Of a stretch of DNA of 59,150 nt, positions 5,437 to 59,150 are shown piece after piece. Both the position numbers and the translations under genes were made by a program. Origin of the DNA: an uncultured Candidatus Saccharibacteria bacterium. Lineage in GTDB: Bacteria; Patescibacteriota; Minisyncoccia; Phycocordibacterales; UBA9973. Under the pieces are notes generated by a model that ran no database searches, was not told the origin of the DNA, and saw only the letters and a program-made list of their open reading frames with translations. The stretch lies in contig CAZLXA010000003.1 in the NCBI GenBank assembly GCA_964563715.1, positions 1 to 59,150 on the forward strand. The letters are read 5' to 3'. The stretch's first letter is position 1. Every line of letters begins with the position of its first letter.

Positions 5437-5443
5437 TATAATT

Positions 5444-9025: not shown

Positions 9026-11719
9026 TTATTTACTACTTTTAATTCCTGTTTTTGAAATTCGTATATTTGACTTAACTTTTAGTTTTTTCATTTCAATCAC
9101 TAATTCGTTGTTTTTGAAAGTTACATAAACTGTATCCCCTTTTTTGACTCCTCCCGAAATTATAAACATCGCTACCGGATTAAGAATTTTATCTTGAATC
9201 AGTCTGCCCAGAGGTCGAGCTCCATAATGTGGGTCATATCCCTCTTTAGCAAGATAGGTAAGAGCTTCATCTGAAATATCGAGAATAATATTTTTACCTA
9301 ATAAACGCTCACGAATAACTTTAATTTTTATATCAACAATATTCCTAATTACTTCTGGAGAAAGAATATCGAAGACAATGATATCATCGAGTCGATTCAA
9401 AAATTCTGGACGAAAATGTTCTTTTAAAGAATCCAAAACTTTTTCTTTAGTTTGAGCATATTCATCTTTTTTAGTTTTATTAGTAAAACCAAGCGATTCC
9501 ATTTTTTCAATATAATTTGAACCCAAATTTGATGTCAAAATTATAATCGTATTTTTAAAGTTAACGATTCTGCCTTTGGCATCAGTTAAGCGCCCTTCAT
9601 CGAGTACTTGGAGTAAAACATTAAAAACTTCTGGGTGGGCTTTCTCTATTTCATCAAATAAGACAACTGAATATGGACGATGCCGAACAGCTTCAGTTAA
9701 ATTACCCGATTCATCGTAACCAACATATCCAGGGGGTGAACCAATAAGTTTTGAAATACTATGGCGTTCGGTATATTCACTCATATCAACTCGCACTAGA
9801 GCCTTATCATCATTAAATAAAAACTGGGCCAGAGCTTTAGTTAATTCAGTTTTCCCAACCCCTGTTGGCCCCAAGAAAATAAATGAACCCATCGGTTTAT
9901 TGGGGTCTGAAATTCCCGCTCGACTTCTTCGAACAACATCAGCAATTTTTTTAATTGCTAAATCTTGTCCGACAACTCGCTCTCTCAATTCATTTTCAAT
10001 TTGAGCTAACTTTTTTAATTCTTCTTCAAGCATCTTTTCAAGTGGCACTCCAGTCCAACGCGAAACGACAGAAGCTATATCTTCAGTCGTAATTTCTTCT
10101 TTCAAAATTCGACGCGATTTTTGTAATTTCTTTAAGCGAGTAAGCTTAACCTGTAACTTATTTTTTAAATCAGGAATTTCTCCATAGCGTATTTCAGCTG
10201 CTCTGCCTAAGTCGGCTTTCATTTCAGAATTCTCAGCTTCAATTCGTAAAGATTCCAATTCTTTTTTAATTTCTCGAATTTCTAGCACTGTCTCTTTTTC
10301 ATTTTTCCATTTAAGTTCAAGCTCGTGAGTTTTTTCTTTTAAATTAGCAATTTCTTTTTCAATTTCTTTCATTCGAGCTCTTGTCTCTTTGCCTTCCGCT
10401 TGATTAACTCTTGCCATTTCATTATTAAGTGCTTGTTTTTCAACTTCAAAACGCATTATCTTACGATCTGCTTCTTCTAAAATTTGTGGCTTATTTTCAA
10501 GAGCCAAACGAAGTGATGAGGAAGCCTCGTCAATTAAATCGACAGCCTTATCAGGTAAATATCGATTTGTAATATATCTGGAACTTAAATTAACCGCTGA
10601 AATAATTGCCTCATCAGTAATTCTTACTCCGTGGAATAATTCGTATTTTTCTTTCAACCCTCGCAAAATTGCAATTGCATCATCTATATTTGGTTCATCA
10701 ATATAAACCGGTTGAAAACGTCGAGCCAAAGCAGGATCTTTTTCAATATGTTTTTGATATTCTTTTAAGGTGGTGGCCCCTATCGCTCGAAGCTCACCAC
10801 GCGCCAAAGCTGGCTTTAGCATATTTGAAGCATCAAGTGAACCTTCAGACGAACCAGCCCCAACAATGGTATGGATCTCATCAATAAAAAGAATTATTTT
10901 GCCATCTGATTTTTCTATTTCTTTCATAATGCCTCGCAATCTTTCTTCAAATTCTCCGCGGTATTTTGTTCCCGATAAAAGCAAGCCCAAATCAAGAGCA
11001 ACAACTTCTTTATCTTTCAAACTCTCGGGCACATCGTTCTTGGCAATTCGAATAGCTAGGGCTTCTGCTACGGCAGTTTTTCCTGTTCCGGCCTCCCCTA
11101 TTAAAATTGGGTTATTTTTTGTTCGGCGAGATAAAATCTGCATCATTCTCATAATTTCTATATCTCGACCTATAACAGGATCGAGTTTATCTTCTTTTGC
11201 TAAGTCAGTTAGATTACGAGTGAATTTAACCAATAATTTTGGTTTTCGAGAAGAAGTATTTTCCGAAATATTTTCACTGCGTAATAATTTCAAAACATTT
11301 AAAACTTTTTCTTTGTTTATTTTAAAGCGCCCCAACAATTCGCGAGCCTCACCTGGAACTTCCAAAAGTGAAACAAATAAATGTTCAGTTGAAACAAATT
11401 CATCTTTTAAAGCCAATGCCACCTTACTAGAATTCTCAATCACTTGGGCTAAATCTGGAGTTAAATAAATTTGATATGATGGCGATAAAGTATTTCTATT
11501 TTCTGGTGATTCAGTCATTTCTATTAAATTATCAGTCAGAAGCATAGTATCTACTTCCATTTTATCTAGTATTGATATTACTAATGAATCCTCTTGAATA
11601 AGAAGAGCTGTTAATAAATGCAAAGAATTAACATGGTTTTGGCCACGTTCAATAGCTAGCTCGTGAGCTTTTCTTATTACTTCTTTTGCTTTAGTTGTAA
11701 AATTGTTAAATGGTGGCAT
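9026..11719 (-). CDS. clpB: ClpB disaggregase (AAA+ chaperone)
   Basis: 897 aa. Clp_N repeats. Walker A sites GEAGTGKTA and GPTGVGKTE. A long coiled-coil middle domain lies between the two AAA modules. Confidence 0.95.
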   Translation of the reverse strand: MPPFNNFTTKAKEVIRKAHELAIERGQNHVNSLHLLTALLIQEDSLVISILDKMEVDTMLLTDNLIEMTESPENRNTLSPSYQIYLTPDLAQVIENSSKVALALKDEFVSTEHLFVSLLEVPGEARELLGRFKINKEKVLNVLKLLRSENISENTSSRKPKLLVKFTRNLTDLAKEDKLDPVIGRDIEIMRMMQILSRRTKNNPILIGEAGTGKTAVAEALAIRIAKNDVPESLKDKEVVALDLGLLLSGTKYRGEFEERLRGIMKEIEKSDGKIILFIDEIHTIVGAGSSEGSLDASNMLKPALARGELRAIGATTLKEYQKHIEKDPALARRFQPVYIDEPNIDDAIAILRGLKEKYELFHGVRITDEAIISAVNLSSRYITNRYLPDKAVDLIDEASSSLRLALENKPQILEEADRKIMRFEVEKQALNNEMARVNQAEGKETRARMKEIEKEIANLKEKTHELELKWKNEKETVLEIREIKKELESLRIEAENSEMKADLGRAAEIRYGEIPDLKNKLQVKLTRLKKLQKSRRILKEEITTEDIASVVSRWTGVPLEKMLEEELKKLAQIENELRERVVGQDLAIKKIADVVRRSRAGISDPNKPMGSFIFLGPTGVGKTELTKALAQFLFNDDKALVRVDMSEYTERHSISKLIGSPPGYVGYDESGNLTEAVRHRPYSVVLFDEIEKAHPEVFNVLLQVLDEGRLTDAKGRIVNFKNTIIILTSNLGSNYIEKMESLGFTNKTKKDEYAQTKEKVLDSLKEHFRPEFLNRLDDIIVFDILSPEVIRNIVDIKIKVIRERLLGKNIILDISDEALTYLAKEGYDPHYGARPLGRLIQDKILNPVAMFIISGGVKKGDTVYVTFKNNELVIEMKKLKVKSNIRISKTGIKSSK

Positions 11720-11734
11720 AAATATATAATTAAA

Positions 11735-11760
11735 AATTACGAATTAATAATTACGAATTA
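11735..11760. repeat. two copies of AATTACGAATTA (14-nt period) just upstream of the clpB start
   Basis: Copies at 11735-11746 and 11749-11760. This is the same heptad family as the arrays at 13388-13415 and 42728-42755. Confidence 0.7.
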
Positions 11761-11783
11761 AAATACAAAAATTTTATAATTGT

Positions 11784-12391: not shown

Positions 12392-13696
12392 TTATTTCCA
12401 CTTTTTATATTTCTCTAAAATCTTTTTTAATTCCTTATATAATACATCGATGTCTTCTTTTTTATTACCCCTTCCCAAGGAAATTCGAAGTGAACCTTCT
12501 TCTATTCCATCTTTGGGACAAATTTTTCGAATAGCCTTAATAACATATGAACCTTGATCGTCGTCACTTTTGCACGCACTTTTTTCCGAAACATAAATAC
12601 CTCGAGCAGAAAGTTCAATAACTAAAAGTTCGCTTGATATCCCTCTGATTGAAATATTTATATTATTGGGTAATCTTTTTTCCTTATCGCCATTTAAAAT
12701 TATTTTGTAACCTGAAGTATCAGAGAGTGATAGTAATTTTTCGATTCCATAATCTCTAATTTTTGTCAGCCTCTCTGTTTCTTTTTGTTTAATTTTATTT
12801 GTTATTTCAAAAGCAGAAGTTACTCCGGCAATTAAAGAAACACTTTCCGTGCCAGAATGTAAACCAAATTCTTGACCTCCCCCACTATATAATGGAGACA
12901 AATCTATATTTCTTTTTTTATATAAAATACCAATTCCTTTCGGTCCATAAATTTTTGAGCTATTGAAGGTCATTAAATCAACACCCAATTTCTCAATATT
13001 TTCAGTCGGTAAATAATTCATTGCCTGACATGCATCCGTATGGAAAACAGGAAGAAGAGCGGGAAAAGGCCTTGCCTCAATAGAGCCCGAGGCAAGGCCT
13101 TGAGGAGCTCTTTTTATTTTCCTAAACCTTCTAATTATTTTTGCGATTTCTTCTATTGGTTCTATTGTTCCAATTTCATTATTAGCGTACATAACTGAAA
13201 CTAAAACTGTATTTTCTTTTAGTGATTCTTCCAACTCAGAAAGATCTACAATTCCATTTTTATCAACCGAAACATATGTCACTTCGGCCTGCCCTCTTTC
13301 TTCGAGCATTTTACAATTTTCAAGTACGGCAGGGTGTTCTATTTTCGTCGTCACAATATGTGGAATTTTGTATTCTGTATTTTCATTCTTAATTCTTAAT
13401 TCGTAATTCGTAATTATCCCTATTATTGCAAGAGCATCGCTTTCTGTTCCGCTTCCGGTAAATATTATTTCATCACTATGCGCATTTATTAATTTAGCAA
13501 CTTTTTTTCTTGACTCTTCTATAATATTTCTTGCTTTTACACCCCTATCATAAATAGCGCTTGGGTTTGCAAAAAATTCTCGCTCATAAAAAGCGACTTG
13601 TCTGCCAACCTTTTTATCAATGGGTGTAGACCCTGCATGATCTAAATATATTATTTTCTTTCTAAACATATTATTACTATACCATATTTCCATCAC
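12392..13696 (-). CDS. class V aminotransferase / cysteine desulfurase (NifS/IscS-like)
   Basis: 434 aa. Motifs: YLDHAGSTP, FTGSGTESD, FHTDACQ, PLP-lysine region FNSSKIYGPKGIG and Cys loop SEKSACKSD. The likely true start is the MFRKKIIYLD ATG at 13669. Confidence 0.9.
   Translation of the reverse strand: MMEIWYSNNMFRKKIIYLDHAGSTPIDKKVGRQVAFYEREFFANPSAIYDRGVKARNIIEESRKKVAKLINAHSDEIIFTGSGTESDALAIIGIITNYELRIKNENTEYKIPHIVTTKIEHPAVLENCKMLEERGQAEVTYVSVDKNGIVDLSELEESLKENTVLVSVMYANNEIGTIEPIEEIAKIIRRFRKIKRAPQGLASGSIEARPFPALLPVFHTDACQAMNYLPTENIEKLGVDLMTFNSSKIYGPKGIGILYKKRNIDLSPLYSGGGQEFGLHSGTESVSLIAGVTSAFEITNKIKQKETERLTKIRDYGIEKLLSLSDTSGYKIILNGDKEKRLPNNINISIRGISSELLVIELSARGIYVSEKSACKSDDDQGSYVIKAIRKICPKDGIEEGSLRISLGRGNKKEDIDVLYKELKKILEKYKKWK
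13066..13101. repeat. GC-rich 13-bp perfect inverted repeat inserted in-frame in the cysteine desulfurase gene
   Basis: AAGGCCTTGCCTC-(10 nt)-GAGGCAAGGCCTT. It encodes part of the extra loop RAPQGLASGSIEARPFP just before the conserved FHTDACQ. Confidence 0.75.
13388..13415. repeat. four tandem heptamers C[T/G]TAATT inside the cysteine desulfurase CDS
   Basis: cttaatt cttaatt cgtaatt cgtaatt, read on the coding strand as ITNYELRIKN. Confidence 0.75.
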
Positions 13697-14251: not shown

Positions 14252-14336
14252 CACAAATTATATTCCGAAAAAAGTCCTCGGATGAGGGAGGACGAGGAGC
14301 CAGACATTTTTTCGTAAAATAATTTGTTCCGCTTTA
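14252..14336 (+). repeat. hairpin-forming leader element, copy A, ending 7 nt before the infB ATG
   Basis: The 22-nt left arm CACAAATTATATTCCGAAAAAA and the 35-nt right arm AGACATTTTTTCGTAAAATAATTTGTTCCGCTTTA are identical to copy B. ACAAATTAT pairs with ATAATTTGT, and CGAAAAAA pairs with TTTTTTCG. Confidence 0.8.
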
Positions 14337-15861: not shown

Positions 15862-15936
15862 CACAAATTATATTCCGAAAAAACTGTAAGAGGAAAAGGG
15901 TAGACATTTTTTCGTAAAATAATTTGTTCCGCTTTA
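15862..15936 (+). repeat. hairpin-forming leader element, copy B, ending 9 nt before the rbfA ATG
   Basis: Same arms as copy A, with a different and shorter central segment (CTGTAAGAGGAAAAGGGT). Confidence 0.8.
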
Positions 15937-21502: not shown

Positions 21503-22672
21503 ATGATAAAAATTGCTAAAATAAAAAAAATGTATGTATTGTCATTTATCTTCGCTTTACATATTTCTATTTCGGCCTATATCAGTTCTGTTTTTTTAAC
21601 TCAATTTATTAGCGAAAAATATGTTGGTATATTATATACCCTAGCCTCACTATTAACATTAATACTTCTAATTAAAAGTTCCGGGATCTTAAAAAATCTT
21701 GGGAATCGTAGGCTTACTCTAATTTTTCTATTAATAAATATGTTTTCTCTGGTAGGGCTAATAACCTCCCAAAATCCATATATTATTGGAACTTCGTTTA
21801 TATTATTTATGACGACCAATACATTGGTATATTTTTGTATCGATATTTTTATCGAACATTTTGGTAATCCTGCGACAATTGGTAAAACTAGAGGTCTATA
21901 CTTAACAATTATAAATATTGCTTGGATGGTATCTCCAATTATTTCGGTTTTTCTAATTACGAAAGAAGGAGGTTATAAGGCTATATATATACTTGCTTTT
22001 GTTATGGTTATGTTAATGGCTATCGGCCTATTCTTTTCGGTTAAAACATTTAAAGACAAGGTATATAAAAAAACTCCTTTCCTTGAGACATTTAAATACT
22101 TAAGAACAAATCCTCATATGTTTGCGATAGTAATTATTAATTTTATATTACAGTTCTTTTTTGCTTGGATGGTTGTTTATACTCCTATTTATTTATTTAG
22201 TCATTTAAATTTTACCTGGAATCAAATTGGCATTATTTTTACGATAATGTTAACACCGTTTGTTATATTAGGATTACCAACAGGTATACTAATAGATAAA
22301 TATCATGTTAACAAAAGAACATTACTTTATATTGGATTTATAATTATAATTATTTCGACTTTTATAATTTCATTTATTACCACAAAAAATATAGCTATAT
22401 GGGCAATTATTTTATTTATGACTCGTGTTGGTGCTAGTTTTATCGAAACAACTTCAGAAACTTATTTCTTTACCCACATACAAGAAGAAGATGCTTACCT
22501 CTTAGGAATCTTTCGTGATATGAATCCGATCGCTTACATCATTGCTCCCCTAATTGCCACAAGTATATTTTTAGTATTACCATTTAATTATCTTTTTATT
22601 GTTTTAAGTCTTATTTTATTAATCGGTCTATACTATATACCAAAATTAAAACATAACCATGGATCCCGTTAG
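21503..22672 (+). CDS. MFS-type transporter
   Basis: 389 aa with about 12 hydrophobic helices. Confidence 0.7.
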   Translation: MIKIAKIKKMYVLSFIFALHISISAYISSVFLTQFISEKYVGILYTLASLLTLILLIKSSGILKNLGNRRLTLIFLLINMFSLVGLITSQNPYIIGTSFILFMTTNTLVYFCIDIFIEHFGNPATIGKTRGLYLTIINIAWMVSPIISVFLITKEGGYKAIYILAFVMVMLMAIGLFFSVKTFKDKVYKKTPFLETFKYLRTNPHMFAIVIINFILQFFFAWMVVYTPIYLFSHLNFTWNQIGIIFTIMLTPFVILGLPTGILIDKYHVNKRTLLYIGFIIIIISTFIISFITTKNIAIWAIILFMTRVGASFIETTSETYFFTHIQEEDAYLLGIFRDMNPIAYIIAPLIATSIFLVLPFNYLFIVLSLILLIGLYYIPKLKHNHGSR

Positions 22673-22787
22673 AAGTCATACATGTTAGCTTAATAAAAAA
22701 GATTATGCTAAGCTATAAACTATATATTTTGATATTATTATTTAATCAAAGTACGGGAATCTAAAGATTCCCTACTTCTAACGGGAT
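22663..22787 (+). repeat. inverted-repeat leader element E1 (14-bp arms, ~97-nt spacer); the 3' arm ends on the ATG of the pseudouridine synthase
   Basis: ATCCCGTTAGAAGT (22663-22676, overlapping the MFS stop codon) pairs with ACTTCTAACGGGAT (22774-22787). Hairpin GGGAATC-TAAA-GATTCCC (22755-22772) sits 1 nt before the 3' arm. Confidence 0.8.
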
Positions 22788-23487
22788 GGAACCAATTAGA
22801 ATAAATAAATATTTAGCCCAAAAAAATTATTCCACCCGTGTTGGTGGTGATGAACTTATTAAAAAAGGTTTAGTTTTTATTAATGGTAAAAAGGCTGTCT
22901 TAGGTGATAAGGTGTACGAAAATGATGAGGTGGTAGTTAAATCAAAAGGATCAAAAAAAGAATATGTTTACTATGCTTACAATAAAAATGTAAATGTTTC
23001 AACTAATCCCGATACAACAAGTAAAGACATCCTTCAGGTCACAAAATTTCCCGTCCGAGTATTCCCCGTCGGAAGGCTCGACAAAGATTCACACGGACTA
23101 ATATTAATGACAAACGATGGTCGTGTTACCGACCGATTACTTTCTCCACGTTTTGTTCATGAAAAAGAATATACAGTTAAAGTCGATAAGCCATTTTCTG
23201 ACACTTTCATAGAATTAATGCAAAATGGTGTCCATTTTGACGGTTTCATCAGTAAAAAGTGTAAAGTCTGGAGAATGGGTAAATCCAAAGATATCTTCCA
23301 TATAGTGCTAACAGAGGGCAAAAAACGCCAAATAAGGCGTATGTGTGAGGCTTTACACCATAATGTCATTGACCTTAAAAGAATCCGAATCTTAAATATT
23401 GAGCTCGATAAAATCCCTCTTGGAGAATTTAGAGAAATAAAAGGCAAAGAATTAAATGAACTTCTCAAGCAATTAAATCTACTATAA
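22786..23487 (+). CDS. pseudouridine synthase, RsuA/RluB family
   Basis: 233 aa. N-terminal S4 domain IRINKYLAQ. Catalytic-Asp motif GRLDKDSHGLILMTNDG. Confidence 0.9.
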   Translation: MEPIRINKYLAQKNYSTRVGGDELIKKGLVFINGKKAVLGDKVYENDEVVVKSKGSKKEYVYYAYNKNVNVSTNPDTTSKDILQVTKFPVRVFPVGRLDKDSHGLILMTNDGRVTDRLLSPRFVHEKEYTVKVDKPFSDTFIELMQNGVHFDGFISKKCKVWRMGKSKDIFHIVLTEGKKRQIRRMCEALHHNVIDLKRIRILNIELDKIPLGEFREIKGKELNELLKQLNLL

Positions 23488-26520: not shown

Positions 26521-29500
26521 CTAATTCTCTGACGGTATTGTGTTTGAGTCATCTGAAACAGGGCTTTCAGGAAGAGATACTACCACTGTTGTGTCATTAA
26601 TAGGTTCCGTTACTGTTTCAATAGATGGAGTAATAACCGGCTCTGTATCGATAAGAGGAAGTGGATTTGTAACGATTTCATTTTCAACTACTGGGGGATT
26701 TTCTGTTTCAATAGGAGGAGTAGCGACAGGTGGAGGCACCACAGTCGGTGTAACTTCAATTTCAGGGGTAGTGACATCTGTATTTGCTGTTCCCTTTGCA
26801 TTTATCAACATTTGTTTAAATTCTTCTTTTGTAATGCAGACATCATCAACACAAACATCACCGTTGACATGAAAAATATTGGCGGTAAATTCTTTGGCGA
26901 AAGTAGCTTGCTCTGCTAAAAATCGAGTAATAAGAGAACCGAGAGAATTATCCTTACTTGTATCTAAAGATGAAAGTTCTTTCACTATAAGGTCCATCTC
27001 TTGTATGGCCTTCACAGTGTAAGGTATTAAATTTGTATAAGAAATAGATTTCAAATTTGTATTCGGATCTGTAAAAACAATATCAGGGAATATTTGTTCT
27101 ACCTCTTGAGCAATAAATCCGACATGCTTATTTGTATTATCATTTTCATTATTCCAGTTATACATTACAGGTGTCAAAGCAAGTATTTTTTCTAGAGATT
27201 TCGAAGATGTATCAATATTTTCTTTTAAAATAAATTCAGAATTTTCGAGTGTTGTTATATTTTTCTTTAAATTTATATCTGAAGAACAAGCAAGTGATGC
27301 GGTTGTCGGATTTATATCGCAAGTCCCAGTACTGTTTTCAAATCTTACAACGATTCCAGAAACTGTATTATTACCAACTTGGAGTTGATATGAAGGACTG
27401 GTATTTCCAATTCCGACATTGCCTAAATTATCAACAGACATCAAATCAATTAAAGAATTTTTAAACCTAATACCACCAATTGATTGATTTAAAATCTCGA
27501 CATAACTAGTTATCCCTGAACCTGCATGATTGAGTCTACCATTTCCTCCAAACGCGATTGTTGATGATGATTTAATGTTACCCAATACATCTAAATTTGC
27601 AGCCGGAGTAGCTGTCCCAATTCCGACATTGCCGCCAAAATAACTTATAGCAGTACCTGCACCATAATATCCATACCTTCCTGTACCACTTGCAACATTA
27701 GTTTCTATCGCTCTAAAATCTGGAGCCGAGGTGAGAGTTGGATTAACATAAATCCCTCTTGTAATTCCATTTGCTGTTCCAGTTTGATTTACCGTAGGTG
27801 CGATATTTAATACATTAAATGTTGTACTATTTGACGCTGTAGCAATAGTTGGAGTTGAAGTAATTATATTTTGAGTTATACCATTAGTAGCCCCAGTTGC
27901 CATCGTACCATTCCCTAATCTTATAAAATTGGTAATTGTAGCACTTGCGTTTATGTCATAATCAATTATTGGACCAATGGAATTCGAGGTAACATTATTT
28001 ACAAAAAATGTTCCTGATCCTGCTGACAATTTTATAATATCTGTAGCAACAGTTGAAGTACCAACTACATGTAATTTACCCGTTGGTGTCGTCGTACCAA
28101 TACCTACATTACCGGATCCTGTTATCCTCATATTCTCCCTGAGAGTAGCTCCTCCTGTATCATAATTTTTAAATGCAAGGTCATAAGTTGCATTTGTTAT
28201 GGCAGCATTACCAGACCAGTTTAAAGTAAGCCCACCTCCAGAGAAAGCTATATCTCCAACTACTGTTAATTTACTACTCGGACTCGTCGTCCCAATTCCG
28301 ACATTACCAGAACTATTAATTCTCATCATTGTTGAACCAATTGTATTATTATTATTCCAAGAACCAACCTTAAAATCTAAATAATTTGTAGTTCCAATAT
28401 CAGTATGACCAGCAACAATTTGAGCCATCGATGTATTGGTATTACCCCCACCTGCTGTATTGCCATTAAATTTTATTATCCCTCTATCTCCATATGCCGT
28501 AGTATTATTATATAAACGTAACGAGGTACCAGCGGTAGATATTCCTGTTATATCAAGTAATTCACTTGGACTCGTCGTCCCGATGCCGACATTGCCGTTA
28601 GTATTATCTATCGCCATCCTTGTAGTAGCACCAGTTGAAACAGTACCTCCTGCTCCAAAGAAAAACTTTCCATTGAAAGTACCTATGTTAACGTCACCAT
28701 TGTTCCAACCAAAATAAGCTAAACCAGGAACTGTGGTACTTTTTGTATCATTAAAAAATCCAGCCATATAAGGTGATTCACTTGGGGCATGAACGGCTAA
28801 AGCAAAAGGGGTAACATTATATAAATCTACACTCTTAACTTCCAATTTTCCTAAAGTCGGTGTCGTCGTCCCAATCCCGACATTGCCGCTTGCCAAAACA
28901 TTAAGTAGATTATCATTATTGTACATTCCGATTGAAAAACGATTACTTGTTGAACCATCAGAAACATGCACATAATCAAAATGAGCTGAGTTATTTGTTG
29001 ACTTCGCTTTTCCAAGAAGGAACAATGATCCACTATTATTCACAATGTTTGGAGTCAATCCTTCGTATACCCATGAGAATACTCCACTTGAACCAGCAGA
29101 CGTATTTGATGTAATGAATGGAGCAACTTGAGTCGAAGCTGATGTTGCTCTGACAACACCATTTACGTCAAGAGGGTACGCAGGAGTTGTCGTCCCAATG
29201 CCGACATTGCCATTACCCATTACAGCAAATCTATTACCACCTATTAAAGTATAAGATAATCCTGAAGCTGTATTTGAGAAAGCAACTGAAACAGTAAGAA
29301 CTGTATCACTTGCAATTGTTGAAATTATTCTAGCTGTTTCTCCTGATACTGTAACTGTATCTCCGACCTTAAAAGTGCTCAAGAATGATGTGTTGGTTCC
29401 AGTCAGTGTCGTTGTTCCTGTAGTTGCGACTGTTCCGTTACCTGTTGTACTTTGTATAACATTATATAGGCCACTTAATCCAGTGCTTGATCCCGTCGCA

Positions 29501-32500
29501 AATCTACCTGCGGTATCAGAATAAAACATATAATTACCACCAGCGGTACGAAAACCACCACTAAGATTAGATAAATAATATTCATTACCTTTAATAGGCC
29601 CACTCGTTCTAACTCCATAACTACCATTAGTTGTTGTATTAAATTCTGTCAAGAAAGTACTATTTACTTCAAGTTTTGCAGCTGGATTAGTAATTCCAAT
29701 ACCTACGTTGCCTGCACTTGTAATTCTCATTTTTTCTGAGGTCACAGAATCTAAAGCAGAGCCGAAAGAAATAAAACTATCGTTAGTTGTATTTGTAGTA
29801 GTCCACTCCTGTTCTTTACCGAACCTCAAATACCCAGCAGAAATAGGAGCTGAAGAAGTTGTTCTAGCAAAATATGCATCTTGAGTAATAGAATGCGATA
29901 TGCCCGACGATTGGTCCATATTTCGTAGGGTAATAGGGATAGCATCTCCGTTATTATTATAATTCACGAGCAACTGACCATTTGAATTTATTTGAGTATA
30001 TCTTATTGTAGAATTCGTACTTCCTACATGCAAAAGGGCTCCCGGTGCCGTCGTCCCGATGCCAACATTACCAGAAGGATTTATAACAAATTCACTTGTT
30101 CCTCTAACATTTTCACCAGAAAAAATTTTAAAATTATTATCTGAATTATCAAGACCAATACTGTATTCAACTGCAGCATTAGTATTTGCAGAAAATTGCA
30201 CTTGAGAATCATAAGCAGAGCTACTAAAAGCATATAATTTCAAATTAGCATTTTCTCCCGCTTTGTATATTTCCAAATTTGCCCCTGGCGTTGTTGTTCC
30301 AATACCGACGTTGCCTGTACTTCTATTTATTGTCAATCTATCAACAAAGCCAGCACCTTCCATACTTTGTACATTAAAAGTATTTGCAGAAGCCCCATTA
30401 TAAAATAATTTGAAACCATAACTTGTTCCAGTTATTAAAGAACCAGCACCTTCTGCCATTACAAAACCGCTATCCTGATTTGCCCCAGACACTAACCCAA
30501 CTAAGGCATTATTAGCAAAAGCACTATCTCCAATTTGCAACGGAACTGTTGGCGTTGTCGTTCCAATACCAATATTACTAACCCCAATCGACATAATAGT
30601 CGTCGCTGCTCGAGAAATTTCTAAATTTCCAGTTAATGCGCTTAACGCAATTGTCGCTCTACTAGCACCGACTCTTTCTATTCTTATACCATCATTCGCT
30701 GTATCCCCTGACTGTAATATACTTAGTAACCCTGTAGGAGTATTTGTCCCAATCCCGACATTACCACCATCAATAACAGATAAAGCCGAGTTTGCTCCAT
30801 CTAAAAATTCTACAATCTTTCCTGTTCCATTTTGATTCACAGTCAAACCAGTAAGAGTAGAATTTCTTGTTATATCAATACCACCAGAACTTACCGTCAT
30901 ATTGCCGTTCGGTAGAAAAATGCTACCATTTTCAATTCTAAAATTACCCGTTCCAAGATTTAATAATGTTGTTGGACTCGTCGTCCCAATGCCGACGTTA
31001 TTTCCAGATGGATTTAAAGCAAGATTACTATTATACGATTGTATTGAAGAATATGTATTAGTTGCACCGAGATTAAAAGAAAGAGTCGTATCACTTCCTC
31101 CTGGTCCTATTTGCAATTTTGCAATCGGACTCGTCGTCCCAATCCCAACGTTACCATTCAATAACGTCTTTGTGATATTTGTATTTCCAAGAGTCACAGT
31201 ATTACTCCCTTGCCCTATTGCATTATATCCAATAACAATTTCATTATCAGTTCCATTGTCACTAGCCTTAGAATTACCACCTAAATATAATCCATTATTA
31301 CCAGTTGTTCTTTCTGTTATCCCATCTGAAATATACCTGGCTGACTGATAGCCATAAGCTGTATTTAAAGAACCGGTTGTATTTGAAACCATAGAGGCGT
31401 AACCACTCGCAGTATTGTTTCCAGCAGTAGTTGAAGAGAGTGCGTAAGCGCCATTTGCCGTATTATTACTACTAGTAACATTAGCAAACAAAGACTCTCT
31501 ACCTATTGCAGTATTGTTTGTTCCTGTTGTATTAGAATATAATGCAAGTATTCCAATAGCCATATTATTATTACCTGTCGTGTTTGAAGTTAATGTTCTA
31601 TAACCTAAAGAAGTATTATTAAATCCGGTAGTATTTGAGGTAAATGACTCACTACCAATAACTGTATTCAGTGAAGATTGTGAAGCCATAGTAGCAGTTG
31701 AACCAGTTGTAAGATTGCCAGCCCCGATTCCAATAAAAATATTATTACCAGTTGGAGTTATTGAATTACTATTTAATCCATAACTAAAATCAGAAATAAA
31801 AGGCGATGATCCTTTATAAATTATTCCATACGGAGTACTCCCTGTTGTTGTTGGTAGTCTAAAGTTTTTTGTAATTTCTAATTGCTGATTTGGTGTTGTT
31901 GTTCCAATGCCGACGTTACCATCTTTATCAATCCTCATTTTTTCTGAATTAACAGAACCATTGTTTGTTTGGAAAATCAAATACCCTTCAAGATTTGTAG
32001 TATAGTTTGCATATATACCTGCAATATTACCCCAAGATGGTCGTCGAAAATTTATCGATTGACCATTTTCTATTATTAGATTACCTGCTGAAATATGTAA
32101 TTTTTCTAATGGATTTGTCGTTCCAATGCCGACGTTTCCATTATTTAAAATAGTAACTTTATCAGAACCGCCAATCATAAAATGAAGTGGGTAAAGTCCA
32201 ATATTATTTATATATCCATCTCCTGTATTGGTATTAGAATATAACTCCATATAATTTCCACCACCACTTCCATCATATCCAAAAATAAGTTTTGGTGTGT
32301 TCCCAATCGTTGTTGCTCCTATTCTTATTCCTTTATCGGTAAGATGTAATCCTGCGGTCGGTGCCGTCGTTCCGATACCCACATTACCTGTGTTGTCAAT
32401 CAACATCCTAGTAAGAGAATCAGAACCGAAACCACCTGTTCTGAATGCTAATGTTCTTCCAGATGCGCTACCTAGAATCATTCTAGAAGACCCATCAAAA

Positions 32501-34215
32501 AACAAAGCTCCTTGTGAATTTGAAAATAAAAATTGATGACTATCTGTGGAATCATTTCCAATTAAAACATTTCCCTCAACTTCTAATTTTTGAGTTGGGT
32601 TTGTTGTTCCGATTCCAATATTTCCATTACCATTCATTCTCATATATTCTGTACTTCCAACCATAAATTTAACTGCGTAAGAAGAAGAATATGGTTTTAT
32701 AAAAAAATCTGTAGAACCAATAACCCCTGCAATACTACTAATTTGCCCCGATCCCATATTTAAACCAGCGATATAACTTGTAGTCCAATATTTACTAGGA
32801 ATTCCGAGTGAACCACCAGATGATACTGTTGGAACAATATTCCCAGTCACAGTTAATGCATCAGTTGGTGATGTCGTTCCCATTCCAACTCGGTGATTCA
32901 CACTATCAACAAATAAAGTATTCGTATCAACAGTTAAATTATGTAGACCCAAATCAACATTGGTATTTCCACCTGTATAAGGAATTAATCCTGACAAATT
33001 AGAAGGGGTTAAATAATTTCCCGCTGGTTGTTTATTATTAAAAGTTAACCAATCTGTTGATGCTAGATATCCATCAACCAAATTTGTGGCCACTCCTAAT
33101 TTTGTTTTTATAGAAGAATTTGTTTCATCTCCTGTATTTGTCCCAGAAAGATTTGAGCCAATAATATTTCCTGTGGCTAAAATATTCCCGTCTACACTTA
33201 TTTTCTCTGAAGGAGTACTTGTCCCTATTCCCAACCTAGAATTCGTACTATCCCAAAATAAATTTGTATTATCCTCTGTAAGTCCAGATGCTCCCTGGAA
33301 TGGAATTGAACCGAAAGTAAATGCGGGGTTAATAGTCCCAACTACATTTCCCGTGAGGTTACCGGTGATAGTTAGATCTCCGTTGATATTTGCATCACCT
33401 GAAACAATAAGAGATTTTGTCTCTACTTCATCTGCTAGTGAATTAGATAACCCTTTGATGCTGTCTGATATAGAATCAAATATTTTACTGACTTGTCGAG
33501 AAAAAAATACTTCTGAGACAAAATTAGAAACATCGATACTGTTTCCGTTTTCACCTTTCGGTCCTTGAGGGCCAACTGGCCCAATCAAACCTTGTGAACC
33601 TTGAATTATTTTTGTATCTGTTTTAGTTATTTGGATTGCTGGTGGAATAATTTCGTTTTTTGTTGTTTTTGGATTTTCTTTATTTGATGAGGGAATACTA
33701 GGAACAGTTTTCTTTGAAGTATTATTATCAGAAATAATTGTATCAGTATTTTTATTGTCGATTCCTATAACTGCTTGATTAAGAGCAATTCTTGTTTCAA
33801 CAAAATTGTTTATTAGTCCTTTTATAAAATAGTTCCAACCATAAGCTAGGTCGCCAGCGACTGAGACTAGAGACGATCCGAGTGAGGTATTATTTGTATA
33901 TTCTTTATTAGAAAGTGGGATAGAAATATCGATAGCAGTTGCAGTAAGATTTGTTTTCTTATTTACAGAAAATTCTGTTGTTTTGATTTCAAATTGATTA
34001 TCTAAATTAGAAAAATCTGGAATATTTTTCTTAAACAATGAAAGTGAATCATTTATTAAACATGCAACATCTGTATCATTGCATACGATTCTTTCTGTTA
34101 TCTTTTCGTTATTATAAGCAAGTAATATTTTAATGGGAAAAGTCACAAAAATAACAAAAATCAGTATAATGAAAAATGTATACTTATAATTTTTTATTTT
34201 TTTATTTTTTTCCAT
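26521..34215 (-). CDS. giant membrane-anchored fibre protein: collagen-like stretch, ~20 GNVGIGTT repeats, C-terminal tail-fibre-type intramolecular chaperone (Peptidase S74-like) domain, Pro-rich tail
   Basis: 2564 aa. TM anchor FFIILIFVIFVTFPIKILLAY. Collagen-like run GSQGLIGPVGPQGPKGENG. The motif GNVGIGTTxPxxxLxV recurs about 18-20 times by my count. The C-terminal module reads CSSDINLKKNITTLEN...LTPVMYNWNN...HVGFIAQEVEQIFPDIV...YTNLIPYTVKAIQEM. Confidence 0.9.
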   Translation of the reverse strand: MEKNKKIKNYKYTFFIILIFVIFVTFPIKILLAYNNEKITERIVCNDTDVACLINDSLSLFKKNIPDFSNLDNQFEIKTTEFSVNKKTNLTATAIDISIPLSNKEYTNNTSLGSSLVSVAGDLAYGWNYFIKGLINNFVETRIALNQAVIGIDNKNTDTIISDNNTSKKTVPSIPSSNKENPKTTKNEIIPPAIQITKTDTKIIQGSQGLIGPVGPQGPKGENGNSIDVSNFVSEVFFSRQVSKIFDSISDSIKGLSNSLADEVETKSLIVSGDANINGDLTITGNLTGNVVGTINPAFTFGSIPFQGASGLTEDNTNLFWDSTNSRLGIGTSTPSEKISVDGNILATGNIIGSNLSGTNTGDETNSSIKTKLGVATNLVDGYLASTDWLTFNNKQPAGNYLTPSNLSGLIPYTGGNTNVDLGLHNLTVDTNTLFVDSVNHRVGMGTTSPTDALTVTGNIVPTVSSGGSLGIPSKYWTTSYIAGLNMGSGQISSIAGVIGSTDFFIKPYSSSYAVKFMVGSTEYMRMNGNGNIGIGTTNPTQKLEVEGNVLIGNDSTDSHQFLFSNSQGALFFDGSSRMILGSASGRTLAFRTGGFGSDSLTRMLIDNTGNVGIGTTAPTAGLHLTDKGIRIGATTIGNTPKLIFGYDGSGGGNYMELYSNTNTGDGYINNIGLYPLHFMIGGSDKVTILNNGNVGIGTTNPLEKLHISAGNLIIENGQSINFRRPSWGNIAGIYANYTTNLEGYLIFQTNNGSVNSEKMRIDKDGNVGIGTTTPNQQLEITKNFRLPTTTGSTPYGIIYKGSSPFISDFSYGLNSNSITPTGNNIFIGIGAGNLTTGSTATMASQSSLNTVIGSESFTSNTTGFNNTSLGYRTLTSNTTGNNNMAIGILALYSNTTGTNNTAIGRESLFANVTSSNNTANGAYALSSTTAGNNTASGYASMVSNTTGSLNTAYGYQSARYISDGITERTTGNNGLYLGGNSKASDNGTDNEIVIGYNAIGQGSNTVTLGNTNITKTLLNGNVGIGTTSPIAKLQIGPGGSDTTLSFNLGATNTYSSIQSYNSNLALNPSGNNVGIGTTSPTTLLNLGTGNFRIENGSIFLPNGNMTVSSGGIDITRNSTLTGLTVNQNGTGKIVEFLDGANSALSVIDGGNVGIGTNTPTGLLSILQSGDTANDGIRIERVGASRATIALSALTGNLEISRAATTIMSIGVSNIGIGTTTPTVPLQIGDSAFANNALVGLVSGANQDSGFVMAEGAGSLITGTSYGFKLFYNGASANTFNVQSMEGAGFVDRLTINRSTGNVGIGTTTPGANLEIYKAGENANLKLYAFSSSAYDSQVQFSANTNAAVEYSIGLDNSDNNFKIFSGENVRGTSEFVINPSGNVGIGTTAPGALLHVGSTNSTIRYTQINSNGQLLVNYNNNGDAIPITLRNMDQSSGISHSITQDAYFARTTSSAPISAGYLRFGKEQEWTTTNTTNDSFISFGSALDSVTSEKMRITSAGNVGIGITNPAAKLEVNSTFLTEFNTTTNGSYGVRTSGPIKGNEYYLSNLSGGFRTAGGNYMFYSDTAGRFATGSSTGLSGLYNVIQSTTGNGTVATTGTTTLTGTNTSFLSTFKVGDTVTVSGETARIISTIASDTVLTVSVAFSNTASGLSYTLIGGNRFAVMGNGNVGIGTTTPAYPLDVNGVVRATSASTQVAPFITSNTSAGSSGVFSWVYEGLTPNIVNNSGSLFLLGKAKSTNNSAHFDYVHVSDGSTSNRFSIGMYNNDNLLNVLASGNVGIGTTTPTLGKLEVKSVDLYNVTPFALAVHAPSESPYMAGFFNDTKSTTVPGLAYFGWNNGDVNIGTFNGKFFFGAGGTVSTGATTRMAIDNTNGNVGIGTTSPSELLDITGISTAGTSLRLYNNTTAYGDRGIIKFNGNTAGGGNTNTSMAQIVAGHTDIGTTNYLDFKVGSWNNNNTIGSTMMRINSSGNVGIGTTSPSSKLTVVGDIAFSGGGLTLNWSGNAAITNATYDLAFKNYDTGGATLRENMRITGSGNVGIGTTTPTGKLHVVGTSTVATDIIKLSAGSGTFFVNNVTSNSIGPIIDYDINASATITNFIRLGNGTMATGATNGITQNIITSTPTIATASNSTTFNVLNIAPTVNQTGTANGITRGIYVNPTLTSAPDFRAIETNVASGTGRYGYYGAGTAISYFGGNVGIGTATPAANLDVLGNIKSSSTIAFGGNGRLNHAGSGITSYVEILNQSIGGIRFKNSLIDLMSVDNLGNVGIGNTSPSYQLQVGNNTVSGIVVRFENSTGTCDINPTTASLACSSDINLKKNITTLENSEFILKENIDTSSKSLEKILALTPVMYNWNNENDNTNKHVGFIAQEVEQIFPDIVFTDPNTNLKSISYTNLIPYTVKAIQEMDLIVKELSSLDTSKDNSLGSLITRFLAEQATFAKEFTANIFHVNGDVCVDDVCITKEEFKQMLINAKGTANTDVTTPEIEVTPTVVPPPVATPPIETENPPVVENEIVTNPLPLIDTEPVITPSIETVTEPINDTTVVVSLPESPVSDDSNTIPSEN

Positions 34216-42702: not shown

Positions 42703-42727
42703 TTTATTTTAATTTTTATTTATAATT

Positions 42728-42755
42728 GGTAATTCGTAATTCGTAATTCGTAATT
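42728..42755. repeat. four tandem heptamers [G/C]GTAATT in the spacer upstream of glyQS
   Basis: ggtaatt cgtaatt cgtaatt cgtaatt. Confidence 0.8.
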
Positions 42756-54633: not shown

Positions 54634-55830
54634 TTATTTTCTTAAAATTTTATCCATTTTAACTGCAATCTTTATCATATCTTTTTCTTTTCTTCCTCTG
54701 GTTGTTTCGGCACAAGTACCAAGTCGAATCCCCGATGGGTCCATAACACTTCTGGTATCTCCTGGAATTGTATTCATATTCACAATGATTCCTGCTTTTT
54801 CAAGTTTTATACTTGCTTCTTTGCCTGAAATACCTTTCCCATTGAGCCATGTATCCATCAATATCAAATGTGAGTCCGTCCCACCTGAGATAATATGCCA
54901 GCCGAGTTTTTGTAATTCTTTGGCCAAAACTTTTGCATTTTTAATAACTTGCTTTGTATATTTTTTAAATTCTGGCTTCATAGCTTCAGCAAGTGCTACC
55001 GCGACTCCAGCAATATTATTTTCATGTGGTCCACCAAAAAGTCCAGGGATAACCATCTTGTCTAGTTTTTTGTCAAAACCTCGCTCGTCTTTTTTAACAA
55101 ATAAAATTGCTTGTCTTGGGCCACGAAGAGATTTATGAGTTGTAGTCATCACAGAATCCGCATATGGAAATGGAGATGGATAAGCACCACCCGCAATAAG
55201 CCCTGCAAAGTGTGAAATATCAGCGTGGAGAATAGCACCACAAGCATCTGCAATTTCTCTGAACTTTTTAAAATCAACTACTCTCGGATAAGCAGTAAAA
55301 CCACAAACAATGATGTCTGGTTTTTCAGCTATGGCAATTTTTTTCAAATCATCATAATCAATAACTTCAGTTTTAGGGTCAAGTTCAAATTGCAAAGGCT
55401 TCCAAAGTTTACCGGTCATAGAAAGTGGATGCCCATGAGTTAAATGTCCGCCGGAAGTTAATTTCATTCCCATTATCTTTCCTTGCCCGACACCAGTTTT
55501 AGGGTCCCCAATTGGAACAAGGGCTGAGTACAAAGCAAAGTTTGCAGGCGATCCTGAGAGAAGTTGAACATTCACATGCCAGTCTTCTTTTTTTAATTTA
55601 AAAAGTTTTAAAGCACGTTCCATACAAAGGACTTCAACTTTGTCTATAATTTCATTACCACCATAATATCGGCGTCCTGGATAGCCCTCAGCATATTTAT
55701 TTGTCAGTTTAGAACCGACAGCCTTAAGAACATCATCAGATACATAGTTCTCCGAAGCTATAAGGTTTATAACGCTTTTTTGCCTTTTTTCTTCACTCTT
55801 TATAAGTTTTTCTATTTGTTTATCTCGCAT
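54634..55830 (-). CDS. glyA: serine hydroxymethyltransferase
   Basis: Motifs LIASENYVS and TTTHKSLRGPR (PLP lysine). I prefer the second ATG at 55830 (MRDKQIEKL) over the ORF-track start at 55857. That upstream ATG lies inside the E2 leader hairpin. Confidence 0.95.
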   Translation of the reverse strand: MRDKQIEKLIKSEEKRQKSVINLIASENYVSDDVLKAVGSKLTNKYAEGYPGRRYYGGNEIIDKVEVLCMERALKLFKLKKEDWHVNVQLLSGSPANFALYSALVPIGDPKTGVGQGKIMGMKLTSGGHLTHGHPLSMTGKLWKPLQFELDPKTEVIDYDDLKKIAIAEKPDIIVCGFTAYPRVVDFKKFREIADACGAILHADISHFAGLIAGGAYPSPFPYADSVMTTTHKSLRGPRQAILFVKKDERGFDKKLDKMVIPGLFGGPHENNIAGVAVALAEAMKPEFKKYTKQVIKNAKVLAKELQKLGWHIISGGTDSHLILMDTWLNGKGISGKEASIKLEKAGIIVNMNTIPGDTRSVMDPSGIRLGTCAETTRGRKEKDMIKIAVKMDKILRK

Positions 55831-55947
55831 CCCATTAGAAGTAGTCCTTTCGGACATACATATATTTAGTTAATAAAAATCAAAATATGACTAACTTCTT
55901 GATACATTCCCGTTTTCTTAATATAACATATATGACTTCTAACGGGA
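55829..55947 (-). repeat. inverted-repeat leader element E2 (same family as E1, opposite orientation); its 3' arm ends on the glyA ATG
   Basis: On the minus strand CCCGUUAGAAGU (55946..55935) pairs with ACUUCUAAUGGG (55842..55831), with one G-U wobble. Hairpin GUCC-GAAA-GGAC (55855..55844) sits 1 nt before the 3' arm. Confidence 0.8.
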
Positions 55948-56004
55948 CAAGTTCCTTAATTTTATCACAGTTGGCAAAAAAGAAGAAAAGGTTATAATAG
56001 GCTT

Positions 56005-59121: not shown

Positions 59122-59150
59122 CCCGTTAGAAGTAGATAATCTTTAGATTA
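59120..59150 (-). repeat. partial third copy of the E leader element (3' arm plus hairpin), cut by the window edge
   Basis: The minus strand reads AAUCUAAAGAUUAUCUACUUCUAACGGGAUG. This is 29 of 31 identical to the E1 segment AAUCUAAAGAUUCCCUACUUCUAACGGGAUG. The ATG is the CPBP start codon. Confidence 0.75.

Follow-up and report, generated by a model that had tools for sequence, protein, structure and literature searches.

The window analysed here is a stretch of 59,150 nucleotides from an uncultured Candidatus Saccharibacteria bacterium. It has a coding density of 91% and contains three copies of a repeated element, which directly precede rluB, glyA and a gene for a CPBP protease (Table 1). 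The rluB gene is a pseudouridine synthase ORF of 233 amino acids and is itself preceded by an MFS ORF, the end of which now lies within the left (5') arm of copy 1. From the ATG on the far side of this copy a 9-codon ORF extends into the element, the only ORF to enter it.

Table 1. Positions of the three element copies and of the adjoining gene signals in the 59-kb window.
Feature	Position	Strand	Sequence or remark
Copy 1, mobile element, 123 bp	22664..22786	+	TCCCGTTAGAAG...CTTCTAACGGGA; same sense as rluB
Copy 1, left (gene-distal) terminal inverted repeat	22664..22675	+	TCCCGTTAGAAG
Copy 1, right (gene-proximal) terminal inverted repeat	22775..22786	+	CTTCTAACGGGA; final A opens the rluB ATG
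Copy 1, left target-site duplication	22660..22663	+	TGGA; with A at 22659 keeps the original ATGGA start context
Copy 1, right target-site duplication	22787..22790	+	TGGA; its TG completes the start codon in use at rluB
Copy 1, gene-proximal subterminal hairpin	22755..22772	+	GGGAATC (22755-22761), loop TAAA, GATTCCC (22766-22772); then TA, then the right arm
Far-side (left) ATG	22659-22661		opens the 9-codon ORF
MFS stop codon	22670-22672		TAG
rluB start codon	22786-22788		ATG
Copy 2, 118 bp, older copy	55830..55947	-	sense of glyA; arms 55830-55841 (TCCCATTAGAAG on the + strand) and 55936-55947
Copy 2, proximal hairpin	55844-55855	-	GTCC-TTTC-GGAC
glyA start codon	55828-55830	-	confirmed by homologues beginning MKDKQ...
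Copy 3, truncated by the contig end	59121..59150	-	sense of the CPBP/Rce1-like gene; arm and part of the hairpin
Copy 3, arm	59121-59132	-	
Copy 3, gene-side duplication	59117-59120	-	TCCA (= TGGA)
CPBP start codon	59119-59121	-	

The preliminary description had drawn the arms of copy 1 as 14-mers, ATCCCGTTAGAAGT (22663-22676) and ACTTCTAACGGGAT (22774-22787), perfectly complementary across a 97-nt spacer, with a hairpin that stops 1 nt short of the 3' arm, the 5' arm overlapping the MFS stop and the 3' arm meeting the pseudouridine synthase ATG. Re-reading of the sequence bears this out; only the limits of the element need correction, as its true boundary is T...A (22664-22786) and the outermost A/T of the 14-nt arms belongs to the TGGA repeat. 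The exact 14-mer occurs three times in the window, each time as an element arm. Perfect 14-nt inverted repeats no more than 150 nt apart were absent from 19 of 20 mononucleotide shuffles of the window, and the remaining shuffle held two. Folded as RNA, the copy 1 region reaches -43.2 kcal/mol, while shuffled sequences give -21.3 +/- 3.6 (z = -6.0).

Copies 1 and 2 have 70% identity over their full length and 65% within the interior, with the blocks CATAyATGTTA and ATATTTTGAT common to both spacers. The recurrence described at glyA is real; it spans 55829-55948, with a single mismatch in either 14-nt arm. The flanking repeat of copy 2 is degenerate. In the glyA orthologues of L244 and L245 the element is absent and a 31-nt leader stands in its place; copy 2 is no simple insertion, since 11 unrelated nucleotides now stand where this leader was and no flanking repeat is left, which counts against a transposon. 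The called 407-residue glyA product begins inside copy 2 and carries a false N-terminal extension of 9 residues, its homologues beginning at the second methionine. The recurrence at the CPBP gene (59120-59150) was also found as described, an arm with part of a hairpin; the end of the window is the end of the contig, so the copy is cut there. All three window copies, two of them on the minus strand, have the GGG-ATG junction that had been reported.

Outside the window, paired arms occur almost only in Patescibacteria MAGs; the viral contigs of IMG/VR gave 71 single matches at chance level and no pairs. Many metagenome matches, of the form TACTTCTAACGGGAGGGGAA, were set aside because they derive from a different, unrelated repeat. 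The terminal inverted repeats are 12 bp long and often reach 13-14 bp. Across 71 gene-oriented copies, 835 of 852 arm positions (98%) are Watson-Crick pairs, and in variant arms both sides change together. Element size ranges from 29 to 312 bp, with common classes of about 71 bp and about 100-125 bp. The interiors are hypervariable with little common sequence, to the extent that subfamilies cannot be aligned to each other; a hairpin conserved in structure adjoins one end in the larger class. Identical 12-bp ends are present in lineages as distant as Saccharibacteria and Parcubacteria, which is unusual for a MITE and counts against that reading.

Evidence for mobility comes from the flanks and from orthologous sites. 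Of about 60 arm pairs in the genome scan, 47 lie between exact direct repeats of 4 bp, and over all loci in Patescibacteria assemblies there are 80 distinct elements with exact 4-bp duplications (chance expectation 1 in 256); a few nested elements have a 5-bp duplication. The rluB site is filled identically in a genome with a 97% identical rluB (L237, L238) and empty in one with a 94% identical rluB (L239, L240). This empty site reads ...gattATGGAATATCC in L239 and is likewise given by ...ATGGAATATCC, with the MFS gene overlapping it. In L244, from a genome with a 94% identical glyA, the site at the CPBP orthologue is empty and leaderless, TATAATgattatATGGAAGA. Single 8-kb loci hold up to 3-4 arm pairs, some of them nested; nested copies (L053, L054, L041, L009 and L068) bear their own flanking repeats. 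The copies are short, non-coding and dispersed, with terminal inverted repeats, a duplication of fixed length and variable sequence, and presence or absence at orthologous sites, as MITEs are. The element is probably a non-autonomous, MITE-like DNA transposon from a family with a wide distribution among Patescibacteria (CPR), in Saccharibacteria as well as in Paceibacteria/Parcubacteria lineages. A transposase and cut-and-paste chemistry are assumed. The stretches of about 8 kb around the matches contained no arm pair 0.33-9 kb apart with a matching duplication, as an autonomous parent would have, and no long ORF beside an unpaired arm that resembled a transposase partner, a point against this reading.

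The variability of the 4-bp flanking repeats between copies also bears on whether the arms could be a recombination or uptake site (attC-like, Xer-type, or DNA-uptake sequences as inverted pairs) rather than a transposon, as a site-specific recombinase with a fixed crossover core would give no such variation. The arm sequence GTTAGAA does resemble the attC core GTTRRRY, arm spacing is variable in both, and CPR bacteria rely on DNA uptake. However, attC has its inverse core RYYYAAC at the 5' end and its core GTTRRRY at the 3' end, and the order here is the reverse (GTTAGAA first, TTCTAAC last). Sites of the attC type lie at the 3' ends of gene cassettes, whereas the copies lie at the starts of housekeeping genes, and the separate flanking repeats of nested copies likewise speak against this reading, which is extremely improbable.

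The preliminary description had favoured a conserved cis-regulatory RNA, riboswitch-like or protein-binding, and had offered a MITE-like element that donates start codons as the alternative. The alternative is strongly supported by the 4-bp duplications, the empty sites, the nesting and the terminal A within ATG. A vertically conserved leader RNA controlling a regulon would account for the conserved closing stem, the co-variation of one hairpin and the position of the element always immediately 5' of start codons. Against it stand the target-site duplications and the empty orthologous sites in close relatives, with the element absent at rluB, glyA and CPBP in the nearest diverged relatives, so that vertical conservation is lacking. 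Moreover, the interiors vary (29-312 nt), leaving only the closing arms and one hairpin in common. The 20 downstream genes examined encode unrelated housekeeping functions (aminoacyl-tRNA synthetases, ATP synthase alpha subunit, MreB, MurG, PNPase, H+-PPase, proteases and transporters among them) and form no functionally coherent set. Rfam, searched in gathering and permissive modes, returned nothing relevant, the best matches being L20_leader (E = 0.54) and miRNA models (E = 0.5-2), far below the cut-offs. A leader of this kind is very unlikely.

The position of the element relative to the gene is exact. In 58 of the 80 elements the last A of the element and the duplicated TG together form the ATG of a long ORF, and in several more a long ORF starts within 1-5 nt. 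With its terminal A placed before the TG that opens the duplication, the element rebuilds the ATG at the gene; a variant of the element that ends in G gives a GTG start. The base preceding the far-side duplication is A in 56 of the 58; the original ATG survives on that side. These start codons are genuine, as glyA homologues begin at the same methionine and Pfam domains begin near residue 1 in the 20 downstream proteins. Translation through the element in frame, to yield an extended N-terminus, was rejected, the element length plus 4 not being constrained to multiples of 3 and the glyA homologues starting at the second methionine.

The duplications in these 58 elements are TGAA (29), TGGA (13), TGAG (8), TGCG (3), TGGG (3), TGAT (1) and TGTA (1). 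TGGC, TGCC and TGTC are absent from them, though they make up 11 of 40 ATG starts in the window. The preferred target, 5'-A^TGRR-3', is the commonest start-codon context in these genomes. Sequence preference combined with purifying selection predicts that about 37-45% of non-disruptive ATGRR sites should be start codons (22 starts vs 37 intergenic sites in the window). The share seen is at least 73%, an excess that calls for a further factor, whether additional target recognition or selection. Open complexes formed by RNA polymerase at leaderless promoters were rejected as the sole cause of insertion at these sites, as the rluB site is intra-operonic and overlaps the MFS gene.

The element also keeps one orientation with respect to the gene. 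Among members of the 95-135-nt family, the end with the hairpin and TA is solely gene-proximal in 21 elements and solely distal in none, and the interior motif CGGRA is found 20 times in the sense and 2 times in the antisense direction. The GC-rich 71-nt family keeps one orientation; elements shorter than 95 nt show no bias by the hairpin/TA marker. The proximal hairpin has compensatory changes in 5 of 6 pairs (14 copies). The fixed orientation and these changes could equally reflect selection on an RNA function.

One role that might hold the element in this orientation is that of a portable promoter, for which the Correia elements of Neisseria are a precedent. An outward promoter in the AT-rich interior would drive the gene, transcripts would start in the spacer and the two arms would never lie on one RNA. 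An extended -10 motif, TGnTAnnnT, does occur 69-72 nt before the ATG in five related copies (L005, L006, L101, L203 and window copy 1), and TTTTATAGTC is common to several copies. However, across all 39 of the large copies this motif is not confined to the sense strand (12 sense vs 7 antisense), TATAAT with at most one mismatch is found on both strands (79 sense vs 84 antisense), and a consensus scan gave no sense-strand promoter within the window copy. The 71-nt family lacks room for a promoter and is nonetheless single in orientation. A promoter function is unlikely.

The host genome has few Shine-Dalgarno sites and many leaderless genes: of the 49 window genes, 4 have an SD-like sequence before them and 18 a -10-like hexamer 5-8 nt ahead of the start. 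The far-side flanks of the elements match this pattern (5 of 58 SD-like, 20 of 58 -10-like), and the far-side ATG often keeps its native -10 box at 6-7 nt. In the frame set by this ATG, the left arm never contains a stop. Pairing of the arms in RNA beside the AUG is physically plausible, the predicted fold of the 71-nt family being -42 to -51 kcal/mol.

On a rival reading, the mobile element would have been exapted as a translational module, its start-codon copies persisting in one orientation through a useful or necessary RNA role. The stem of terminal repeats would mask the AUG of the gene and open only when a ribosome crosses the left arm, having started either at the duplicated native AUG, which is 5'-terminal where genes are leaderless, or within the gene upstream; the original initiation signal would in this way still govern expression of the real ORF. 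The stable stem ending at the AUG in the window copy and in the 71-nt family would fit such a module, as would the retained -10 box, the stop-free left arm, the MFS stop codon within the left arm of copy 1, the excess of start codons over the sequence-only expectation, the fixed orientation with its co-varying hairpin, and tolerance of insertion at essential genes (aminoacyl-tRNA synthetases, ATP synthase alpha subunit, MreB, MurG). On the other hand, the short far-side ORF has no consistent end point, its stop falling anywhere between 132 nt ahead of the A of the gene and 34 nt past it; coupling through a conserved stop of this ORF was rejected, as the stops are scattered and only 4 of about 40 lie at the right-arm TAA. 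Mismatches in the gene-sense arms show no clear excess of G.U over A.C (5 vs 6 raw, about 5-7 vs 2 after curation, not significant with so few mismatches), and the absence of orientation bias below 95 nt is a further objection. The two window insertions with clean empty sites are also recent, present at 97% and absent at 94% protein identity, and therefore their intact arms need no long-term selection. Such exaptation is unlikely, if less so than the roles considered above.

A more specific form, a ‘start-codon relay’, is improbable: duplication of the start codon would preserve the native initiation site (the 5'-terminal AUG of leaderless genes) on the far side, the stem would bring this site beside the real AUG and initiation would be handed from the first AUG to the second. 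This could proceed by ribosome-driven unmasking and re-initiation or, in an extreme version, by the initiator tRNA and ribosome sliding across the base of the helix, much like bypassing of the gene-60 type. If true, it would be a transposon-borne, SD-independent translation start specific to the SD-poor, leaderless-rich Patescibacteria.

For the MITE-like transposon, the data show that insertion duplicates 4 bp of the target, preferably at A^TGRR, restoring an ATG directly at the gene and leaving the old ATG, with its promoter or coupling context, on the far side. Mobility, the start-codon register and the fixed orientation are likewise shown. Beyond this it may be proposed that target choice would be mainly sequence-directed and orientation-specific, and purifying selection would remove intragenic insertions, such that start codons remain as safe sites. 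The long-range RNA stem beside the AUG would then be a by-product of the inverted repeats, tolerated by the host, and no evolved ligand sensor.

Among known systems the element is reminiscent of bacterial MITEs and Correia elements (CREE/NEMIS), which are likewise non-coding and about 100-150 bp long, with perfect terminal inverted repeats, target-site duplications and many gene-adjacent copies; Correia elements are also co-transcribed into mRNA, where the repeats can form a long hairpin. Correia elements duplicate TA, whereas the duplication here is 4 bp and A^TGRR-preferring. Further differences are the exact start-codon register, with the last base of the element completing the ATG, the fixed orientation to the gene, and 12-bp ends common to class-level Patescibacteria lineages without a known parent IS. 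Correia elements and MITEs can change the expression of neighbouring genes (PMC10969869). Neither this MITE review (PMC10969869) nor a MITE survey of 183,232 genomes mentions behaviour like that of the present element, and a literature search on the arm sequence, CPR MITEs and start-codon-targeting MITEs found no prior description among the papers covered.

Rickettsia palindromic elements are mobile palindromes tolerated in contact with essential coding sequences in reduced genomes (PMC10969869). Their insertions keep the reading frame of the ORFs that contain them and add a peptide segment to the product, whereas the present element lies just outside the ORF, at the start codon, and contributes nothing to the protein. 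IS200/IS605 elements and their derivatives (PATEs, REP/RAYT) have a subterminal hairpin and insert in a specific orientation beside a short specific target. The element shares the hairpin and the oriented insertion with this type, but has terminal inverted repeats and a target duplication, both of which the type lacks. The piggyBac/IS1380 superfamily has a 4-bp target duplication and CCC...GGG ends as here, and the piggyBac terminal repeat CCCTAGAAAG presumably resembles CCCGTTAGAAG of the element, a lead only; in contrast, the target is not TTAA and the outermost base is T/A, not C/G. Finally, programmed bypassing (phage T4 gene 60; mitochondrial byp) similarly involves a structured insert of mobile origin between identical flanking codons, here AUG plus 2 nt. 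The identical AUGNN flanks result from the target duplication, there is no stop after the would-be take-off codon, and the insert lies before the ORF rather than within it; the sequence data give no evidence of bypassing for this element.

An apparent riboswitch-like leader is hence reclassified as a transposon with unusual behaviour: it lands exactly on start codons, rebuilds the ATG with its terminal base, keeps one orientation and has the same 12-bp ends in very distant Patescibacteria. The element breaks assemblies, as in the contig here, which ends within a copy, and misleads gene callers, as in the extension of glyA. Should the cognate enzyme truly recognise A^TGRR in a single orientation, it would make an interesting integrase, both site-directed and direction-specific. 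For the biology of these bacteria, a streamlined genome can harbour a mobile element at ‘safe’ sites, and a very stable helix set against the AUG of essential genes, in organisms that seemingly make almost no use of Shine-Dalgarno sites, provides a natural probe of translation start in the CPR.

The element stands at three gene starts in the window, those of rluB, glyA and a CPBP gene, and the coordinates of these copies are collected in the table. The structure proposed for them in the preliminary description was confirmed. In copy 1 the two 14-nt arms are perfectly complementary and lie 97 nt apart, with a hairpin that is separated from the 3' arm by a 1-nt gap, and both the second copy and the truncated third copy were recovered. 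The exact 14-mer occurs in the window only in element arms. Perfect 14-nt inverted repeats within 150 nt arose twice in one of 20 mononucleotide shuffles of the window and never in the other 19. Read as RNA, the copy 1 region has a predicted fold of -43.2 kcal/mol (z = -6.0 versus shuffles), and Rfam holds no family matching the element.

Coordinates of features in the window
Feature	Position (nt)	Sequence or remark
Copy 1, 5' arm	22663-22676	ATCCCGTTAGAAGT
Copy 1, 3' arm	22774-22787	ACTTCTAACGGGAT
Copy 1, hairpin	22755-22772	GGGAATC-TAAA-GATTCCC
Stop codon of upstream MFS ORF	22670-22672	TAG, inside 5' arm of copy 1
Target-site duplication of copy 1	22660-22663, 22787-22790	TGGA
rluB start codon	22786	ATG; 233-aa pseudouridine synthase
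Copy 2 (glyA)	55829-55948	
Recorded start of 407-aa glyA product (P0121)	55831-55857	MSERTTSNG-MRDKQ, within copy 2 hairpin
Sequence in place of glyA leader	55948-55958 (compared with 3470-3500 of orthologous locus L244)	TAAGGAACTTG
Copy 3 (CPBP gene)	from 59120	runs off window end
TAnnnT context, thyA start	55992-56007	TATAATaggcttATG
TAnnnT context, other starts	5430-5446, 11719-11735	
Heptamer runs	11726-11779, 13367-13417, 42693-42757	AATTCGT / TAATTCG (TTCGTAATTCGTAATT); intergenic
28-32-nt palindrome	34665-34696, 52071-52102, 1763-1794	ATCTTTGGAAGTCCGACTTCCAAAGAT; near-identical
35-nt direct repeat	14302-14336, 15902-15936	AGACATTTTTTCGTAAAATAATTTGTTCCGCTTTA; exact; genes start at 14344, 15946
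2564-aa ORF	26521-34215 (- strand)	repeat GG..GTCGTCCCAATnCCGACATTACC

The flanks of the element carry the signature of transposition. An exact 4-bp direct repeat lies directly outside TCCCG...CGGGA in 47 arm pairs of the genome scan and, when all loci are counted, in 80 distinct elements; by chance 1 in 256 would be expected. Elements are nested within one another at five loci (L053, L054, L041, L009, L068), and even the smallest, of 29 bp and consisting of two arms and a 5-nt loop, are flanked by such repeats (L009, L067). An identical element is present in a genome with a 97% identical rluB (L237, L238). A genome with a 94% identical rluB has an empty site, ...cacgattATGGAATATCCAATTAGAATAAAC, where the MFS and rluB genes overlap by 17 nt (L239, L240). 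The CPBP site is likewise empty, TATAATgattatATGGAAGA, in L244, a locus syntenic with the window whose glyA is 94% identical. These empty orthologous sites indicate that the window copies at rluB and CPBP are recent insertions at A^TGGA (the caret marks the left edge of the duplicated bases). The element is thus shown to be non-autonomous, bounded by terminal inverted repeats and 4-bp duplications, and mobile in the recent past.

The insertions are in register with start codons. At 58 of the 80 elements with exact duplications, the terminal A of the element and the first two duplicated bases together form the start ATG of a long ORF, and at several additional elements the ORF start is 1-5 nt off; a variant with C...G ends gives a GTG start (L135). 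An A precedes the far-side duplication in 56 of the 58, so that the original ATG survives on the side away from the gene. The element thus rebuilds the ATG. Pfam domains start near residue 1 in 20 downstream proteins, which together with the starts of glyA homologues (see below) shows that these are real gene starts. Among the 20 are TyrRS/TrpRS-type (two) and class II aminoacyl-tRNA synthetases, ATP synthase alpha, MreB (two), MurG, PNPase, H+-PPase, proteases, transporters and kinases. Being mutually unrelated, they rule out a regulon. The riboswitch-like leader favoured by the preliminary description is contradicted by these unrelated genes, by the empty orthologous sites and by the lack of an Rfam match, and it is the MITE-like alternative offered there that agrees with the duplications, nested copies, empty sites and rebuilt ATG.

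The duplications of the 58 start-codon elements are TGAA (29), TGGA (13), TGAG (8), TGCG (3), TGGG (3), TGAT (1) and TGTA (1), the fourth base being a purine in 57. ATGAA and ATGGA are the commonest start contexts in the window (21/49 genes); 11 of its 40 ATG starts have the context ATGGC, ATGCC or ATGTC, none of which is ever a target, and the target-sequence preference is therefore real. ATGRR occurs in the window at 22 starts, at 37 intergenic and at 601 intragenic positions. From these numbers, which rest on a crude gene map of this one window, sequence preference and loss of intragenic insertions would leave start codons with some 37-45% of the copies that survive. They in fact hold at least 73%, and by our own tally nearer 88% when the target is A+TGRR. 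Judged against that crude map, the association with start codons seems in part to exceed a simple model of preference plus purging.

The element is also asymmetric. Among 95-135-nt elements abutting a gene, an end with the hairpin followed by TA is found only gene-proximally in 21, at both ends in five, at neither in 16 and only distally in none; elements shorter than 95 nt show no orientation bias of the TA marker. In 29/42 the 30 nt nearest the gene have a more stable fold than the 30 nt at the distal end, and the hairpin shows compensatory changes in five of its six pairs across 14 copies. A CGGRA motif, a short echo of the right end, occurs inside elements 20 times in sense and twice in antisense, and CCTAACGGG lies just within the far arm in several subfamilies. 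A GC-rich 71-nt subfamily, predicted to form a rod with two hairpins (-42 to -51 kcal/mol), keeps a single orientation. In all four large elements that have an ATGRR side without a long ORF the hairpin faces that side, a hint that orientation may depend on the target sequence rather than on the gene.

Copy 2 has one mismatch in each 14-nt arm and an interior 65% identical to copy 1, and its flanking repeat is gone; it is an older copy and no simple insertion. Upstream of it the 31-nt glyA leader of two orthologues is replaced by another sequence, and the second glyA codon is CGA in place of AAA. Recombination between copies is one possible cause of this footprint. The longest glyA ORF and the 407-aa product on record both begin at an ATG in the hairpin of copy 2. 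The start methionine of the window glyA, the second M of that product, is shared by 115 of the 119 listed homologues (M[KQRH]DKQ...), so the recorded start is an error of gene calling brought about by the element.

A scan for the 14-mer in one genome per species (596 Gb) gave 116 loci. Single matches are spread across all phyla, as chance would produce for a word of this length in so much sequence. Inverted arm pairs 17-312 nt apart come almost exclusively from Patescibacteria/CPR MAGs, including Nomura-, Kaiser-, Yanofsky-, Zambryski-, Lloyd- and Jorgensenbacteria, Paceibacterota and Saccharibacteria. To judge by what homologues of its rluB and glyA are called, the window derives from an organism of the Nomurabacteria/Paceibacterota type. 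Pairs with flanking repeats were also seen in bins labelled Gammaproteobacteria and Planctomycetia/Planctomycetota and on an unclassified 1.5-Mb contig (L041, L046, L074, L021), which points either to CPR contigs placed in the wrong bin or to hosts beyond the CPR. Further copies came from metagenomes, scanned with a pattern that left the flanking base unconstrained. Metagenome matches in which TACTTCTAACGGGA runs on as GGGAGGGGAA... lack the partner arm and were set aside as a different repeat, from other organisms, sharing the 14-mer by chance (L122, L123, L143, L156, L173, L185, L215, L222, L224 and others). IMG/VR viral contigs gave 71 single matches and no pairs. The window, a whole contig, ends inside copy 3 (59121-59150), so the repeat probably breaks assemblies; further copies lie at contig ends in L002, L013, L059 and L104.

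Other repeats were observed in the window. Two of the three heptamer runs lie just upstream of ATGCC-starting genes, and the runs may be a second repeat or an operator-like motif. For the palindrome, a terminator-like or REP-like nature is possible; the 35-nt direct repeat closely precedes two genes and may have arisen by duplication of a promoter or leader. The 2564-aa ORF contains at least 16 diverged copies of a ~30-75-nt repeat and probably encodes a giant repetitive surface protein.

The element has every structural feature of a MITE save a known parent IS; identification as an attC site, an IS200/IS605-type element or a riboswitch was rejected. Its ends may resemble those of piggyBac/IS1380, in the 4-bp duplication and the CCC...GGG termini. 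Neither these ends nor any MITE of CPR bacteria is described in the literature searched, which included a 2024 review of MITEs and a MITE survey of 183,232 genomes, and the same holds for the targeting and regeneration of start codons by a MITE. We propose that a transposase would recognize the 12-bp ends and asymmetric subterminal sites and cut A^TGRR with a 4-bp stagger in one orientation; purging of intragenic insertions would leave start codons as safe landing sites, and the RNA stem would be a consequence of the inverted repeats. A less probable reading is a role for the RNA, in which the stem would mask the AUG until translation from the far-side AUG or the upstream gene opened it. The left arm is read through by the short far-side ORF in every case, but where this ORF ends is inconsistent, and a comparison of G.U with A.C mismatches in the arms had very few mismatches to draw on. 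A general sense-strand promoter within the element is not supported; a TGnTAnnnT motif occurs ~70 nt upstream of the ATG in five related copies, window copy 1 included.

A Shine-Dalgarno-like sequence precedes only four of the 49 predicted window genes, and 18 have a TAnnnT hexamer (often TATAAT) 5-8 nt before the start, thyA among them; the far-side flanks of the elements are alike (Shine-Dalgarno-like 5/58, -10-like 20/58). The organisms thus appear to have many leaderless genes and few Shine-Dalgarno sites, so that insertion at a start codon would not part a gene from its ribosome-binding site. In a leaderless gene, it would turn a 5'-terminal AUG into an internal AUG set against a 12-14-bp helix.
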